64,000 nucleotides of DNA, from NCBI GenBank assembly GCA_965603015.1, contig CBFDBJ010000003.1:8013-72012 (forward strand), in the 5' to 3' direction. Under the pieces are notes generated by a model, which did no database searches, had not been told where the DNA came from, and saw nothing but the letters and a program-made list of their open reading frames with translations. Positions 5,878 to 55,064 of this stretch are shown piece after piece. A program made the translations under genes and the position numbers. The number at the start of each line of letters is the position of its first letter. The first letter of the stretch is position 1. The DNA is from an uncultured Alphaproteobacteria bacterium. Lineage in GTDB: Bacteria; Pseudomonadota; Alphaproteobacteria; M2410.

Positions 5878-5998
5878 TGTCATCCTCGACGAGCGGAGCG
5901 AGATCGGGGATCCACACCATAAAACCTTCATCTCGCGTGATGATAGCCTTCAGGTATGGATCCCCGATTCCGCCTTCGGCGGCCCGAGGATGACAACA
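5878..5998. repeat. REP-like palindromic element, subfamily C (copy 1)
   Basis: Reads ctgtcatcctcgacgagcggagcgagatcggggatccacacc ... ggtatggatccccgattccgccttcggcggcccgaggatgacaaca. Termini match the other subfamilies. Confidence 0.8.
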
Positions 5999-18418: not shown

Positions 18419-18586
18419 TTGTCGTCCCGGCCGTAGCGTAGCGAAGAGCCGGGATCTCAGGGCAAGATCAATCTACACATTCAGACCAGTACCTGTTTCA
18501 AAATCCTGCCCTGAGATCCCCCTCTCGGGTGTGCATAGCACGCCCTGACGGGCAGTGGGGTCGCGCTGCGCTTGCCCGGGACGACA
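18419..18586. repeat. REP-like palindromic element, subfamily B (copy 2, extended with an inner palindrome)
   Basis: Reads tgtttgtcgtcccggccgtagcgtagcgaagagccgggatctcagggcaag ... cctgccctgagatccc ... gcgcttgcccgggacgacaag. Confidence 0.8.
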
Positions 18587-22735: not shown

Positions 22736-22821
22736 GTCATCCCCGGGCTTGACCCGGGGATCCAGAGCTTCACCCTCCGAGCCAACCGCTTCTGGATTAC
22801 CGGGTCAAGCCCGGCAATGAC
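22736..22821. repeat. REP-like palindromic element, subfamily A (copy 2)
   Basis: gtcatccccgggcttgacccggggatccag ... ctggattaccgggtcaagcccggcaatgac. Confidence 0.8.
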
Positions 22822-23228: not shown

Positions 23229-23354
23229 GTTGTCGTCCTCGGGCCGACCGAAGGGAGGAACCGGGGATCCATACCTGAGAACTGTCACCAAGCGGGATGC
23301 GCGTTCTCGGGTATGGATCCCCGATCAGCGCCCCGGCGCTATCGAGGACGACAT
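23229..23354. repeat. REP-like palindromic element, subfamily C (copy 2)
   Basis: tgttgtcgtcctcgggccgaccgaagggaggaaccggggatccatacc ... gggtatggatccccgatcagcgccccggcgctatcgaggacgacat. Confidence 0.8.
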
Positions 23355-40600: not shown

Positions 40601-40882
40601 TTACTGAAACAACATTGAAGCCAGCAACCACCATGCAACCTGCACGCCGACGATGAGAACGATGGGCGAAAGATCGAGACCACCAATGGGCGGAATGACA
40701 CTGCGGAGCTTTTTGTAGGCCGGATCGGTCATCTTGAAGGTGAACGTATGAACACTCCGCACGAAGGCACTGCCACTGTTAATCACCTGGAAGTTGATCA
40801 ACCAGCTCAGGATGACATCGGCGATGATGATCCAGACGTAAAGACGGACCAGCAGGTCTATGGCTTGGAAGGGAGACATCAT
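40601..40882 (-). CDS. yggT: YggT family membrane protein
   Basis: Start reset to ATGATG at about 40882 (MMSPFQAIDLLVRLYVWIIIADVILSWL...). The track ORF is over-extended upstream. Confidence 0.7.
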   Translation of the reverse strand: MMSPFQAIDLLVRLYVWIIIADVILSWLINFQVINSGSAFVRSVHTFTFKMTDPAYKKLRSVIPPIGGLDLSPIVLIVGVQVAWWLLASMLFQ

Positions 40883-41071
40883 TTTGCCGTTTCTCCTTGA
40901 TTGGCGGGCTAAAGGGACATGTAGCGATTGATGCGGGCAACTGCAACCCCCGGGCCCCGTCCCGCCGGCAGGTTTCCGGGACAGGTCTTGCCATTTCCCG
41001 TCAGGCCTGAAAATCTTGCTCGCACGGCTCATTGATGTTGAAGTGATTGACATGTTTAGCCCTCCCCTTCA

Positions 41072-41201
41072 TGTCATCCCGGACGTAGCGATAGCGAAGA
41101 TCCGGAATCTCGGGATGAGATCGGGGAGGAGTTCGCGCGATCCTGTCCCGCGGAATCGTGCCCTGAGACCCCGGGTCGCGCTTTGCTTGCCCGGGGCGAC
41201 A
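41072..41201. repeat. REP-like palindromic element, subfamily B (copy 4)
   Basis: tgtcatcccggacgtagcgatagcgaagatccggaatctcgggatgag ... cgtgccctgagaccccgggtcgcgctttgcttgcccggggcgaca. Confidence 0.8.
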
Positions 41202-48123: not shown

Positions 48124-49428
48124 ATGAACGAAGAAAATCCTGAAATCACTAGCGCCGCGGAAGACTGCGACTGCAAGGAGGGCATGTTTCCCGATCCGGG
48201 CAGGCGGGCGCTCTTGCTCGGTGGCGCGGCTCTGGCGGGGACCGGATTGCTCGCTGGCAGGGCCGGGGCACAAGCGGCTCAGGGCGCATCGCAGCACGCG
48301 GTACTTGATGATCCAACGAGCCAGCCCGGCCCCGCATCCGGTGGCGGCTATGGCCTGCGCTCACAGTTTGAGACCGTATCGCGCTGGGAATTTCCCCTGC
48401 CCCAACCAGGTGTGTCCGGTTCCTTCACACCACTGGCCGGCACCCATGGCACGATCACGCCCTCGGGGCTTCACTATGAGGTCCACCGAGGCGGTGTGCC
48501 GACGATTGATCGGGCGCGGCACAGGCTCTTGATCCATGGCAAGGTGAAGCGCGCCAAAGTTTTCACCATGGCTGATCTCTATCGTTTTCCCTCCGTCACA
48601 CGCACCGCGTTTCTTGAGTGCGCTGGCAATGGCGGTATGGAATATGCGCGGCCCAGCATGCCACATGTTCAGGGCACGCATGGATTAACCTCCAATTCTG
48701 AATGGACCGGTGTTGCACTCTCGACCCTGCTGCGCGAAGTCGGTCTTGACGATGGCGCAGAGTGGCTTTTGGGCGAGGGTTCGGACGCTGGCATGCACAC
48801 CCGCTCGATCCCGATCGACAAGGCGATGGACGATGCGATCCTGGCCTATGCGCAGAACGGCGAGGCGATCCGCCCGGAACAGGGTTATCCGCTGCGTCTC
48901 CTTCTGCCCGGCTTTGAAGGCAATATGTCGATCAAATGGCTGCGCCGCCTTGACGTGACCGACAAGCCGAGCTTCACCCGGCCAGAGGTTACCACCTATG
49001 CCGACACGCTGGCGGACGGGACAACACGCTATTTCACCTGGGAGATGGAAGCCAAGTCCGTCATCACCTTTCCGTCTGGCACCATGAAGCTGCCGATCCC
49101 TGGCACCTACGAGGTTACCGGCCTTGCCTGGTCCGGTCGCGGCAAGATAACCGGCGTTGAAATATCTACCGACGGCGGCAAGACATGGGGGCAGGCAAAT
49201 CTTGTCGCGCCGGTCCTGTCCATGGCCCACACGCGCTTTACCTTCGGCTGGCGCTGGGATGGCAAGCCCGCCGTCCTGCAATCGCGCGCCACAGACGAGA
49301 CCGGTTATGTGCAACCGACCATCAAGGCGCTGGTTGATGTGCGCGGGGTCAATTCGAAAGACCACAATAACGGCATCCAGAGCTGGGCCATCGACGCAGA
49401 AGGGAATGTGACCAATGTTCATGCCTGA
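48124..49428 (+). CDS. sorA: sulfite dehydrogenase molybdopterin subunit (sulfite oxidase family, Tat-exported)
   Basis: Tat motif RRALLLGGAALAG. Moco-Cys motif FLECAGNGG. C-terminal dimerisation domain. Start chosen at ATG 48124 after GGGAG. Confidence 0.8.
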   Translation: MNEENPEITSAAEDCDCKEGMFPDPGRRALLLGGAALAGTGLLAGRAGAQAAQGASQHAVLDDPTSQPGPASGGGYGLRSQFETVSRWEFPLPQPGVSGSFTPLAGTHGTITPSGLHYEVHRGGVPTIDRARHRLLIHGKVKRAKVFTMADLYRFPSVTRTAFLECAGNGGMEYARPSMPHVQGTHGLTSNSEWTGVALSTLLREVGLDDGAEWLLGEGSDAGMHTRSIPIDKAMDDAILAYAQNGEAIRPEQGYPLRLLLPGFEGNMSIKWLRRLDVTDKPSFTRPEVTTYADTLADGTTRYFTWEMEAKSVITFPSGTMKLPIPGTYEVTGLAWSGRGKITGVEISTDGGKTWGQANLVAPVLSMAHTRFTFGWRWDGKPAVLQSRATDETGYVQPTIKALVDVRGVNSKDHNNGIQSWAIDAEGNVTNVHA

Positions 49429-49954
49429 GAACAAAATCCGGACAAGCCTTCTGTGCGGGCTTTTACTTGCGGCTTGCAATCCCGACAGCAACGCCCGGAC
49501 CGGCGAGCAATTTCCGGAGCTTGGCAGCCCGGCGCCGCATGCGTTGATCGAGGCCTGGGATCGGGATGTGCGCTATGACGGCGCCGGACTGCCGCCGGGC
49601 GAAGGCACATACGATCAGGGGGCCCGGGTCTATGCCAAACACTGCACCGCCTGTCACGGCGAGGCGCTGCGCGGCGTCGAAGGTGTTCAGGGTGGGCCGC
49701 TGATCGGGGAGGGTCCGACCGTGACACAGCACTGGCCCTACGCGCCGACCTTCTTTGACTACGTGCGCCGCGCCATGCCGTTCAACGCGCCGAACTCGCT
49801 TGCCGATGACCAGATCTATGCGCTTGCTGCCTATATCTTCGCCGAGGGCGGTATTTACCCGGCAGACAAGCCGATGAATGCGGCGGCGCTGACGGCAATG
49901 GAAATGCCAAACCGTGATAATTTCGTGCCCGACCCGAGGCCGGATGTGAAGTGA
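49415..49954 (+). CDS. sorB: sulfite dehydrogenase cytochrome c subunit
   Basis: Signal peptide. Single heme motif KHCTACHGE. Start overlaps the sorA stop. Confidence 0.75.
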   Translation: MFMPENKIRTSLLCGLLLAACNPDSNARTGEQFPELGSPAPHALIEAWDRDVRYDGAGLPPGEGTYDQGARVYAKHCTACHGEALRGVEGVQGGPLIGEGPTVTQHWPYAPTFFDYVRRAMPFNAPNSLADDQIYALAAYIFAEGGIYPADKPMNAAALTAMEMPNRDNFVPDPRPDVK

Positions 49955-52178: not shown

Positions 52179-52310
52179 GGGATCACCCTTTCTGCAGACC
52201 TGTCTCATACTGTTTGATCAATCTCTGGCGTGCTCGTGTCAAGATCTTTGGTCGACAGATGTTGGCACATGAGGCTGGTATCGCGATCCTTTATTCGCTA
52301 TCCAGGGGAC

Positions 52311-53462
52311 ATGAAGTCTTTTGATATTGTCATTATTGGCGGCGGCATTGCCGGGGCGTCACTGGCCTGGCGGCTGGCACGGGAGCCAGGGGGGCGTTCG
52401 ATCGCCCTTCTGGAAACCGAGGGTCAGCCAGGGCAGCACGCGACAGGCCGCTCGGCAGCGTTCTTTTCGGAGACCTATGGCAACGAGACGATCCGTGCCC
52501 TGACAACGGCCAGCCGCGTGTTTTACTATTCACCGCCGGAGGGTTTCTCGGAGACGCCGTTGCTGGCGCCCAGCGGTGCGCTTTTTATTGCCCGCAAGGA
52601 CCAGTTGGCGGCGCTTGAGGAACACTATCAATCCACCCGGGTTCTGACGCCGAGCATTGAAAAGCAGACACGCGACTTTGCCCTTTCGCTTGTGCCCGTG
52701 CTGGAGCCGGACGCGGTTGAGGCGTGTGTCTGGGAGCCGGACAGCCAGGCGATCAATGTCCATGAGCTGCTGCAGGGCTACCTGCGCGGCGCGCGGGCGG
52801 GTGGCACGCAAATCCTGACCCGGCGCACAGTCACCGGCCTTGAGAACCGGGGCGGCTCCTGGGCTGTGACAACTGGCGACGAGACTATTGAGGCCGGGCT
52901 TGTGGTCAATGCCGCCGGGGCCTGGGCCGGACAGGTCGGCGCGCTTGGCGGCGCGCTTGATATCGGTCTTGAGCCGCTGCGCCGCTCGGTCTGCGTGATC
53001 GATCCCGCAAAGGCCGACGGTATTGAGGGCGATATCTCCGGCTGGCCTCTGGTTCTGGATGTGGACGAGGCGTTTTACTTCAAGCCCAGTGGCGGCATGA
53101 TCTGGCTGTCGCCTGCCGACGAAGATCCCAGCCCGCCGTGCGATGCAGCGCCCGATGAACTGATCCTGGCGCAGGCGGTCGATCAGCTTGAGCGCGCCAC
53201 CGGCATTCGGGTGCGCCGGTTTGAACACAAGTGGGCGGGCCTGCGAAGCTTCGTCGCGGACCGCACCCCGGTGGTCGGGTTCGACCCGCTTCAGGATGGG
53301 TTTTTCTGGCTGGCGGGGCAGGGCGGCTATGGCATCCAGACATCCCCGGCGCTGTCAGAGGTGGCTGCGGAGCTGATCCTGGGCCGCGGCCTGCCGCCGG
53401 CTTGCACCAAAGCGGGCGTCACGCTTGAGGCGCTCGACCCGAAGCGACTTCAAGTGGTTTAA
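52311..53462 (+). CDS. FAD-dependent oxidoreductase (DAO family)
   Basis: DIVIIGGGIAGASLAWRLA dinucleotide-binding motif at the reset start (MKSFDIV...). Confidence 0.8.
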   Translation: MKSFDIVIIGGGIAGASLAWRLAREPGGRSIALLETEGQPGQHATGRSAAFFSETYGNETIRALTTASRVFYYSPPEGFSETPLLAPSGALFIARKDQLAALEEHYQSTRVLTPSIEKQTRDFALSLVPVLEPDAVEACVWEPDSQAINVHELLQGYLRGARAGGTQILTRRTVTGLENRGGSWAVTTGDETIEAGLVVNAAGAWAGQVGALGGALDIGLEPLRRSVCVIDPAKADGIEGDISGWPLVLDVDEAFYFKPSGGMIWLSPADEDPSPPCDAAPDELILAQAVDQLERATGIRVRRFEHKWAGLRSFVADRTPVVGFDPLQDGFFWLAGQGGYGIQTSPALSEVAAELILGRGLPPACTKAGVTLEALDPKRLQVV

Positions 53463-53484: not shown

Positions 53485-53898
53485 TCAGCTGAAAATATCG
53501 AGCAGCGTGTCCTGCATCTGGCCGACCGTCCGCACAACATTGGCGGAGGCCTTGTAGGCGTGCTCGGCGACCATCATATCCGTGAGCTCATATTCCAGCG
53601 AAACATCAGACGGCTTTTCAGGCGGTCGATCCTGAGGTAAATTGTCAAAAGGCAGCGACAATTGCTGCGCCAATTGCTGTGGCTGAGCAGGGGCGGCAGC
53701 CCCGCCGGATTCCTGGTTGGTAACTTGATCCACCGGCAAACGCTCGGATACCACGGGACCACTGCCGGTGGATTGCTGTACCACTTCGGAAGCTCTATAG
53801 CCCGGGGTCAAAACGTTGGCCACGTTGTCGGCGCGGATCGCGAGGCGATCAGCGGCGGCATTCATTCCGGCTACGGAAGATGTTAATGCAATGCTCAT
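53485..53898 (-). CDS. flagellar basal-body rod protein family (FlgB/FlgC-like), orphan
   Basis: N-terminal Flg_bb_rod signature LAIRADNVANVLTPGYRA. C-terminal rod motif VSLEYELTDMMVAEHAYKASANVVRTVGQMQDTLLDI. Gln/Pro-rich linker between them. Confidence 0.55.
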   Translation of the reverse strand: MSIALTSSVAGMNAAADRLAIRADNVANVLTPGYRASEVVQQSTGSGPVVSERLPVDQVTNQESGGAAAPAQPQQLAQQLSLPFDNLPQDRPPEKPSDVSLEYELTDMMVAEHAYKASANVVRTVGQMQDTLLDIFS

Positions 53899-54179
53899 GG
53901 CCGAAGCCTACGACAGCACCAACGATGTGTCAAGTTTTCTCAAGTAAAAACAATGGTTTACGAAATTTAACCATCCGTATCCGGATGATAGTTAAGGGGA
54001 TGTAAACAAAATATTTCAATTTGTCTTAACGGCTTGGCGCGCGGGTTACAGCGACATCAAAGACCATCTGCCTTCAAAACCACCTGCCTGACAGGTCCCT
54101 TTGTCTGAAAAATCCGGGATGGTTCAGGTATGATCCGCGACCCTGCGCGCAAGCGAACAGGGCCGATCCGACCTGATCA

Positions 54180-54199
54180 TGATTGATCATGATCAATCA
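54180..54199. promoter_or_regulatory. perfect 20-nt palindrome tgattgatcatgatcaatca
   Basis: Exact reverse-complement symmetry. Contains two GATC. Confidence 0.5.
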
Positions 54200-54245
54200 G
54201 GGCCCTTAACCAATTTGCAGCGGATTCGAATGTCGGGATAAAGTA

Positions 54246-54293
54246 GAGCGGAACAGATCCTATGAAGGGGTCGCGACTGGATCTGTTCCGCTC
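54246..54293. promoter_or_regulatory. hairpin with perfect 15-bp stem (gagcggaacagatcc - 18 nt - ggatctgttccgctc)
   Basis: Read directly. No U-tract, so not a canonical terminator. Followed by a second 7-bp stem, ttgctct-aattaacgcc-agagcaa. Confidence 0.5.
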
Positions 54294-54438
54294 GAAGCTC
54301 TGTTGCTCTAATTAACGCCAGAGCAATGCAGACCTCGCAAAGACCATGCCAGGCACGCGGCGCGCGCAATATCCTGTATTTTTTCCATAATTTGGCTTTC
54401 GAGCAACTTTGAAGAGAACTTCCGGGGTGGTCTTTGCA

Positions 54439-54472
54439 TTTTGCAATTCGATTTGCAAATCGAATTGCAAAA
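54439..54472. promoter_or_regulatory. perfect 34-nt palindrome ttttgcaattcgatttgcaaatcgaattgcaaaa (candidate operator)
   Basis: Exact 34-nt dyad built from TTGCAA and TCGAA modules. Ends about 50 bp upstream of the FliL-like ORF. Confidence 0.55.
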
Positions 54473-54524
54473 CACGATTCCGGCTCTGGCGCTATCATGG
54501 GCCAGGTCCACCTCCCCTTAACGC

Positions 54525-55064
54525 TTGTCGCCTATGGTCGGAGCCATGAAAACACCAGCAACAAAGGTTAATGGCATGAGGACGTCACAGATCCCGGGTC
54601 TGAGGCACCGCTCTTTGAGCCGCCAATTGTCCTTCAGTATTACCCACAGCCTGATGGCGCCCCTTATACTGTTACTGGTGTTATCATTCCATCACGAGAG
54701 CGCACTGGCCGCCAGCGGCGGGGGCAACAGTGGCGGTGGTGGAGGCGGCATGGACAGGATGGTGGCCATTGTGCCGATGCCCATCACGATCATCCATCAG
54801 TCCAGGATCAAGGGCATCCTGATGGTGGAATTTTATCTCGAGGCTCCGGACGGAGCCGAAGCAGGACGGATCAATCAGTTGATGCCACGGCTGATGGATG
54901 CCTATCGGACCGGGCTGACCGAGTTTGCGGTGAACGAAGTTCGCCTTGACCGGCCGGTTGATCTGGATCGCCTGGAGCTTTATCTGAACCGCGAAACCCG
55001 CAGCGTCACCGGCAACACGGGCGCCCGCGTCATCTACAAGCAAATCATGGTTCAAAGAAAATAG
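54525..55064 (+). CDS. FliL-like flagellar basal-body-associated protein (start uncertain)
   Basis: TM segment APLILLLVLSF. Gly-rich linker. FliL-like C-terminal pattern ...IKGILMVEFYLEAPD...INQLMPRLMDAYRTGL...ARVIYKQIMVQ. The true start is probably one of the internal Mets. Confidence 0.45.
   Translation: MSPMVGAMKTPATKVNGMRTSQIPGLRHRSLSRQLSFSITHSLMAPLILLLVLSFHHESALAASGGGNSGGGGGGMDRMVAIVPMPITIIHQSRIKGILMVEFYLEAPDGAEAGRINQLMPRLMDAYRTGLTEFAVNEVRLDRPVDLDRLELYLNRETRSVTGNTGARVIYKQIMVQRK

Follow-up and report, generated by a model that had tools for sequence, protein, structure and literature searches.

A conserved intergenic spacer in an uncultured alphaproteobacterial lineage probably encodes a sigma-54-dependent small RNA with a LuxO-type upstream enhancer

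We analyzed a 64-kb stretch of contig CBFDBJ010000003.1 from an uncultured alphaproteobacterium (this whole stretch is hereafter the window) and, within it, the intergenic spacer at positions 53899 to 54524. The spacer is bordered by a minus-strand gene for a 137-amino-acid (aa) flagellar axial/rod-like protein (53485 to 53898; the rod-like gene) and by a divergent plus-strand gene for a FliL-like membrane protein (54546 to 55064; 172 aa from the conserved ATG). A sequence-only reading had reported in this spacer an exact 34-nucleotide (nt) palindrome (54439 to 54472), an exact 20-nt palindrome (54180 to 54199), a hairpin with a 15-bp stem, and a second, 7-bp stem; inspection of the sequence and a repeat finder recovered all four at these positions. 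The spacer was accordingly proposed to be an operator array and/or a structured small RNA (sRNA). We find that the region is three predicted promoters and a central, predicted minus-strand sRNA gene, not one operator array. Both halves of the earlier proposal survive, the 34-nt palindrome as a predicted activator array and the hairpins as the sRNA, as parts of one unit rather than as alternatives.

Contigs carrying homologs of the rod-like or FliL-like protein yielded ten distinct metagenomic or metagenome-assembled genome (MAG) lineages for comparison; homologs numbered 19 for the rod-like protein and 17 for the FliL-like protein among 5.8 billion proteins. The lineages comprise L001 to L004 and L018, a MAG labeled Alphaproteobacteria bacterium (rod-like protein 70 to 99% identical to that of the window); L005/L006, L009, L023, and L024; and L007/L008 and L010/L011 (55 to 56% identical). 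In all ten, the locus is single copy and occupies the same syntenic position, and the divergent neighbor of the predicted sRNA is the FliL-like gene. The elements described below are conserved in these orthologous intergenic regions, as the sequence-only reading had anticipated for functional sites, and the remaining spacer outside them cannot be aligned across lineages. This distribution bears on the idea that the spacer is a mobile-element remnant resembling a miniature inverted-repeat transposable element (MITE) or a repetitive extragenic palindromic (REP) sequence. The G+C content of the spacer (~45 to 52%, against ~60% in the flanks), its inverted repeats, and the MITE-like hairpin elements elsewhere in the window fit such an origin. 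However, the spacer is single copy in the window and in the one reference MAG that has the locus, keeps its syntenic position in 10 lineages, has no match in a plasmid collection, and is unrelated in sequence to the other hairpin elements of the window. We therefore regard a mobile origin as very improbable and see no sign of a mobile-element remnant, target-site duplications not having been explicitly searched for.

The central element of the spacer is a predicted minus-strand sRNA of ~87 nt (54238 to 54325), distinguished by a near-invariant core, a stable fold, and a fixed spacing to its promoter. Its core (~80 nt) is 87.5 to 98.7% identical between lineages whose flanking proteins are 52 to 61% identical and whose FliL-like proteins are only 52 to 77% identical. 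From 5′ to 3′, the RNA comprises stem-loop 1 (SL1; 54324 to 54297), which includes a short stem TTGCTCT/AGAGCAA (54302 to 54308/54319 to 54325); stem-loop 2 (SL2; 54293 to 54246), in which a perfect 15-bp stem (54246 to 54260/54279 to 54293) closes an 18-nt C-rich loop, AGUCGCGACCCCUUCAUA (54278 to 54261), invariant save for one base in L010; and, directly after SL2, a U-rich tail (54245 to 54238). SL1 can pair in two ways, as AGAGC occurs twice, and the 7-bp stem is one of them. Folding of the predicted RNA into SL1 and SL2 has a minimum free energy of −39.7 kcal/mol (z = −6.9).

Substitutions in the alignment follow this fold. RNAalifold and explicit pair counting found canonical pairs in 184 of 184 pair cells. 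In SL2, compensatory changes (G-C to A-U in L007 and L010; A-U to G-C in L010) give two pairs with both sides changed, and two further pairs show G·U variation, with G·U at one position in six of eight sequences. Read on the opposite (plus) strand, 169 of 184 cells pair and 15 become A·C mismatches. A T-run lies 3′ of SL2 on the minus strand only. Because the G·U-only changes, the direction of the promoter described below, and the T-run agree, we take the minus strand to be the RNA strand. The same changes speak to a reading in which no RNA is made and every dyad, the 15-bp inverted repeat among them, serves as a DNA operator through which dimeric repressors or activators control the flanking genes. 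Perfect palindromes within a divergent promoter region are what this reading would expect, and the SL2 loop itself contains a palindrome, GTCGCGAC. Yet changes that preserve G·U pairing on a single strand would have no meaning in duplex DNA, and operators leave the invariant 18 nt between the stem arms, the fixed-distance promoter element, and the T-run unexplained; we judge this reading improbable.

A coding explanation fares worse still. An ATG-initiated plus-strand open reading frame (ORF) of 17 codons (ATGAAGGGG...TAA, 54262 to 54315) spans SL2 and SL1, and a 39-aa gene is called there in L007, so the conserved block could in principle encode a peptide. In L010, however, the reading frame is shifted beyond codon 11 by a 1-nt insertion, a 1-nt deletion removes the stop codon in L005, L009, and L023, and the substitutions track base pairing rather than codon positions. 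Of the explanations considered here, we find this the least probable.

Upstream of the predicted RNA, the minus strand carries TGGCATGGTCTTTGC (54337 to 54351), which reads TGGCAT-N5-TTGC and lies 11 to 12 nt 5′ of the RNA. As the criterion for a sigma-54 (−24/−12) promoter, we used GG and GC dinucleotides 12 bp apart in TGGCAC-N5-TTGCW, ~12 nt 5′ of the start; by its sequence, the element at 54337 to 54351 is a predicted promoter of this class in textbook form, which the sequence-only reading had missed. TGGCA(C/T)-N5-TTGC is invariant in all ten lineages, in each of which the GG and GC dinucleotides stand exactly 26 and 14 nt 5′ of the first conserved RNA base. Conservation of the RNA begins abruptly at GCUCUGG, after 12 variable nt 3′ of the promoter, and this abrupt onset at a fixed promoter distance places the predicted RNA start at ~54325. 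The window holds two matches of the TGGCAT-N5-TTGC type. The second (49895 to 49909, minus strand) lies inside a cytochrome c ORF (49415 to 49954), has no enhancer-like array upstream, and is probably a chance match.

Farther upstream is a predicted enhancer, or upstream activating sequence (54434 to 54472), recognized by its positional conservation and its match to a known activator site. It consists of a dyad, TTGCAAAATGCAA (54434 to 54446, centered at about −115), that overlaps the exact 34-nt palindrome TTTTGCAATTCGATTTGCAAATCGAATTGCAAAA (54439 to 54472), in which three TTGCAA hexamers are spaced 12 bp apart at about −121, −133, and −145 from the RNA start; the array as a whole spans about −114 to −153. 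Only three perfect palindromes of at least 14 nt occur in the window (34, 20, and 14 nt). Because the longest palindromes in 30 shuffles reached 14 to 22 nt at most, the 34-mer is far beyond chance, as had been claimed. TGC(A/G) cores are found at −153, −146, −134, −122, and −115 (±1) in 9 of the 10 lineages, giving the layout [TTGCA-N3-TGCAA]-N6-[TTGCAA]-N6-[TTGCA-N3-TGCAA], and dyads of the TTGCA-N3-TGCAA type occur in all lineages. In the clade of the window, the outermost half-site is degenerate and the spacers have become symmetric, so that a perfect 34-nt palindrome results. Two mirror positions distinguish the palindrome of the window from that of L018 (TTCGAT...ATCGAA and ATCGAT...ATCGAT, respectively), and because both remain perfect 34-nt palindromes despite the two changes, the comparison argues for selection on dyad symmetry.

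The sequence-only reading had found no consensus that the TTGCAA half-site matched. The dyad TTGCAAAATGCAA fits the published consensus for LuxO, TTGCAW3TGCAA, and is identical to the LuxO site of Vibrio cholerae qrr1 defined by chromatin immunoprecipitation sequencing, ttgcaaaatgcaa. LuxO sites have been reported 89 to 120 bp 5′ of the starts of qrr genes, in the interval that separates qrr1 from its divergent neighbor luxO. Further TTGCAA dyads, which the earlier reading had proposed to catalog, are absent from the rest of the 64-kb window, as are further copies of the GATC-bearing 20-nt palindrome and of the hairpin arm. DNA between the array and the promoter is unalignable apart from an A/T tract, CAAATTATGGAAAAAATA (54377 to 54394, minus strand; about −52 to −69), within which TTATGGAAA is kept in 9 of the 10 lineages. 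The tract may be a bend or a cofactor site; compared by eye, it does not fit the IHF consensus.

The two most distant lineages reveal the boundaries of the unit. Downstream of the predicted sRNA, the next gene is co-oriented in every lineage. It is the rod-like gene except in L007 and L010, where a gene of the glucose/sorbosone-dehydrogenase type (GSDH/TrAA12 domains; L007:3487-4914, L010:3664-4929), in the same orientation, intervenes between the predicted sRNA terminator and the rod-like gene. Despite the intervening dehydrogenase gene in L007/L008 and L010/L011, the FliL-like gene still diverges from an intact set of enhancer, promoter, and RNA. The module thus comprises the FliL-like gene, the enhancer, the sigma-54 promoter, and the sRNA, rather than an operator that two flagellar genes share. 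The main competing explanation turns on the same downstream side: the conserved RNA might act in cis, as the 5′ leader or attenuator of an mRNA that is transcribed from the sigma-54 promoter into the downstream gene, with SL2 as a regulated terminator. The consistent co-orientation of that gene favors a leader, as does the imperfect U-run after SL2 in the clade of the window. On the other hand, the identity of the downstream gene varies among lineages, the 130 to 300 nt after SL2 are unconserved, the rod-like gene keeps its own conserved TTGACA-N17-TAnnnT promoter abutting the ATG, and in most lineages the 15-bp stem is followed by a clean T-run. A leader or attenuator is therefore unlikely in our view, although it is the rival that we take most seriously.

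Taken as a whole, the evidence leads us to assign a probability of roughly 70% to the reading that the spacer is a self-contained sRNA gene with a sigma-54 promoter and an upstream enhancer. From the elements, spacing, conservation, RNA structure, and strand observed above, we infer a course of activation, transcription, termination at SL2, and base pairing with targets. An enhancer-binding protein of the NtrC/LuxO type, encoded elsewhere in the genome, would bind the TTGCA-N3-TGCAA/TTGCAA array as an oligomer. Aided by the A/T tract near −60, this activator would loop to RNA polymerase-sigma-54 positioned on TGGCAT-N5-TTGC and drive open complex formation, and transcription would begin at ~54325. 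The ~87-nt RNA would fold into SL1 and the 15-bp SL2, and SL2 followed by the U-run would end the transcript. The most likely partners of the C-rich 18-nt loop would be mRNAs encoded elsewhere, paired with it at ribosome-binding regions rich in purines. The bound activator would also sit ~35 to 75 bp from the presumed promoter of the FliL-like gene and could affect that gene too.

Several observations weigh against an sRNA gene of this kind. No enhancer-binding protein gene was found in the 64-kb window or in the fetched loci of the relatives by searches for GAFTGA and Walker-A motifs or by tblastn with the NtrC central domain, and we assume that this lineage has rpoN. Covariation is sparse in an RNA that hardly varies (two pairs), and 8 of 500 shuffles attain the observed score; SL1 is invariant across lineages, so that no substitutions bear on its pairing. 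The run after SL2 is TCTTTTTT in L005, L009, and L023 versus TACTTTAT in the window, where the U-run is interrupted (UACUUUAU). The 18-nt loop of SL2 is large for an intrinsic terminator and beyond the limit of the terminator scan, which made no call. In addition, no conserved or convincing target of the SL2 loop, and none better than those of shuffled loops, was detected in the window or in the loci of the relatives. Finally, an sRNA that acts purely by base pairing would not usually be so nearly invariant over 85 nt. Such near-invariance may point to a protein partner and, more generally, predicts a partner that is itself constrained.

Two individual loop matches were examined and set aside. 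One, of 10 nt within the nitroreductase gene, lacks conservation in relatives. The ribosome-binding region AUGAAGGGGAGGG (41064 to 41072, minus strand), 5′ of a YggT-family gene (40601 to 41053), is a perfect 9-nt complement of the loop sequence CCCCUUCAU; as a candidate target, it is at chance level for the 128 kb searched. The loop (54261 to 54278) also holds a self-complementary octamer, GUCGCGAC, which would in principle permit loop-loop dimerization of two RNAs or binding of a dimeric protein.

To place the predicted RNA among known families, we ran Rfam cmscan (4,227 families) on the whole spacer and on the RNA alone; at E ≤ 10, it returned only subthreshold microRNA and snoRNA hairpin noise. 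An exact search for the 18-nt loop in 185,579 species genomes recovered one true locus, that of L018, where it is single copy; six other exact matches are coding-sequence coincidences. A gapped-pattern search of Joint Genome Institute metagenome contigs gave four matches, all attributable to chance. Because the exact loop occurs at a true locus in just 1 of 185,579 reference species genomes, we conclude that the predicted RNA is a narrow, undescribed sRNA family, absent from Rfam. The family comes from a lineage known only from metagenomes, and its control region is unusually clear, being readable within 240 bp as predicted enhancer, putative bend, −24/−12 promoter, RNA, and putative terminator.

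The closest architectural parallel is the Qrr/LuxO system of Vibrio. In each, an sRNA gene of ~90 to 100 nt (predicted here) carries a sigma-54 promoter of its own; a 13-bp dyad TTGCAW3TGCAA stands ~90 to 120 bp from the start, with more than one site possible; and the sRNA is divergent from a neighboring protein gene with the sites in between. There are also differences. Even at E ≤ 10, the RNA of the window matches neither Qrr nor any other Rfam family. Its neighbor is the FliL-like gene rather than luxO, and no gene for an enhancer-binding protein was found within 64 kb. The host is an uncultured alphaproteobacterium, and the enhancer has an extra central TTGCAA, which gives it a five-core layout. 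Qrr sRNAs have four stem-loops, against the two hairpins predicted here. Thus, the locus shares with LuxO-Qrr the upstream site, but neither a Qrr-family RNA nor an adjacent divergent luxO (luxU). It is a tentative possibility, and one we would not favor at present, that a Qrr-like circuit operates in this uncultured alphaproteobacterial lineage, in which a LuxO-type response regulator with the DNA specificity of Vibrio LuxO drives one ultraconserved sigma-54 sRNA that controls a signal- or density-dependent switch, possibly motility given the linked FliL-like and rod-like genes. If so, the LuxO/sigma-54/sRNA design would exist outside the Vibrionaceae, either because it arose convergently or because the regulators share an old ancestor. 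A LuxO-sequence enhancer beyond that family would also offer a way to ask how far regulator specificity and circuit design have spread.

Other sigma-54-dependent sRNAs provide looser comparisons. CJnc230 (FlmE) of Campylobacter jejuni is an RpoN-dependent flagellar sRNA processed from the 3′ end of the flgE mRNA. Sigma-54 dependence, predicted here, and physical linkage to flagellar-type genes are common to the two, whereas the RNA of the window has its own promoter and enhancer and is unrelated in sequence. The unit also follows the same logic as three systems that pair sigma-54 sRNAs with an enhancer-binding protein, although the binding-site sequences and the RNAs differ. These are GlmY/GlmZ with GlrR, CrcZ with CbrB, and NrsZ with NtrC, and they share an NtrC-family response regulator, an upstream activating array, a −24/−12 promoter, and a short terminated RNA. 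The GlrR binding site is TGTC-N10-GACA. Some sRNAs of this kind titrate proteins.

The remaining two promoters of the spacer belong to the flanking genes. That of the rod-like gene (53905 to 53933, minus strand) is a putative sigma-70-type promoter with TTGACA (53933 to 53928), a 17-nt spacer, and TAGGCT (53910 to 53905), 6 nt from the ATG; the layout TTGACA-N16/17-TAnnnT-N6/7-ATG is kept in the window, L018, L023, L005, L009, and L007. Because the promoter ends 6 to 7 nt before the ATG, this arrangement suggests that the rod-like mRNA is leaderless. On its 5′ side lies a conserved block (53945 to 54029, minus strand), nearly invariant in alignments, that includes GGTTAAATTTCGTAAACCATTGTTTTTA (53945 to 53972), a TTAACC...GTTAA near-palindrome (53967 to 53997), and TTAAGACAAATTGAA (54015 to 54029). 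The near-palindrome had already been noticed in the sequence-only reading and is assigned here to the rod-like gene's promoter region. The promoter-proximal part of the block stays with the rod-like gene in L007, in which a further gene lies between that gene and the sRNA. A CtrA box has the consensus TTAA-N7-TTAAC. We rejected one at this location, since the conserved element reads TTAA-N6-TAAAC, with the wrong spacing and only a half-site-like word, TTAACCAT (53967 to 53974).

Upstream of the FliL-like gene, whose probable start is the ATG at 54546 rather than the TTG at 54525 (TTTCAT is conserved in alignments), the plus strand carries the motif GTCCAC-N6-CTTAACGCTT-N5-CCTATGG (54506 to 54537), kept in the window, L018, L005, L009, L023, L024, L007, and L010. 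From its conservation directly 5′ of the ORF, we presume it to be the promoter or operator of the FliL-like gene. Compared by eye, the motif fits none of the sigma-factor consensus sequences considered, and no sigma-54 promoter for this gene was seen.

The 20-nt palindrome, put forward in the sequence-only reading as a dyad with two GATC, is not a conserved dyad. It is formed by two exact TGATCATGAT units within four GATC-bearing 10-bp tandem units (54164 to 54203). L001 to L004 and L018 have three TGATCGGTCC-type units and no perfect dyad, and the array is absent from L005, L009, L023, L007, and L010, so that it is confined to the closest relatives. On its own, the 20-mer is borderline against shuffled sequences and is notable only through sharing the spacer with the 34-mer. 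The array thus appears to be a variable-number repeat, possibly without function.

Both flanking genes are flagellar-type, as had been stated, at the level of domain (rod-like) and fold (FliL-like), but not by family membership, because they fall below the FlgB/FlgC and FliL family thresholds. The rod-like protein matches Pfam Flg_bb_rod and Flg_bbr_C above their cutoffs. Against NCBIfam, it has only subthreshold matches, to the ends of FlgK/E/C/B/F/G, and does not reach equivalog scores (best FlgC models, 34.7 bits with a cutoff of 170 and 25.7 bits with a cutoff of 102). No flagellar cluster adjoins its gene, which is an orphan among metabolic genes. The FliL-like protein gives no Pfam match, and only two of six family members match Pfam FliL (PF03748), both below the cutoff (best, 22.7 bits versus 24.6). 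Its AlphaFold model has a C-terminal domain with a predicted local distance difference test score of ~90, and in a Foldseek search of the PDB, the best 11 matches were all FliL periplasmic domains (6AHP, 6AHQ, 7SGN, 9HMF; target-normalized template modeling scores of 0.65 to 0.77, root mean square deviation of 2.6 to 3.5 Å). The protein combines an N-terminal membrane segment with a periplasmic FliL/SPFH-like fold, as in FliL.

The inverted repeats also affect how this locus is represented in public data. Several public k-mer assemblies end exactly at them: the L002 and L004 contigs start 4 nt inside the palindrome, L003 starts within the array of TTGCAA sites, L024 stops where the 15-bp hairpin begins, and L001 starts just past the hairpin. 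Such breaks are the expected behavior of a perfect palindrome that exceeds the k-mer length. Loci carrying a palindrome and hairpin of this kind will be systematically split in public metagenomes and easily missed.

Two features elsewhere in the surroundings were recorded. In most relatives, a gene for a CheY-like single-domain response regulator lies between the DAO oxidoreductase and nitroreductase genes (for example, L002:2206-2592 and L005:6703-7089); it is missing from the window (~52208 to 52311) and from the 99%-identical L001. The window also contains two copies of a ~62- to 66-bp element (5903 to 5968 and 23262 to 23323) with the terminal inverted repeats CGGGGATCCAyACC...GGTATGGATCCCCG, together with two other long G+C-rich intergenic hairpins (18451 to 18520 and 22743 to 22814). 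These copies and hairpins look like members of a REP- or MITE-like repeat family.

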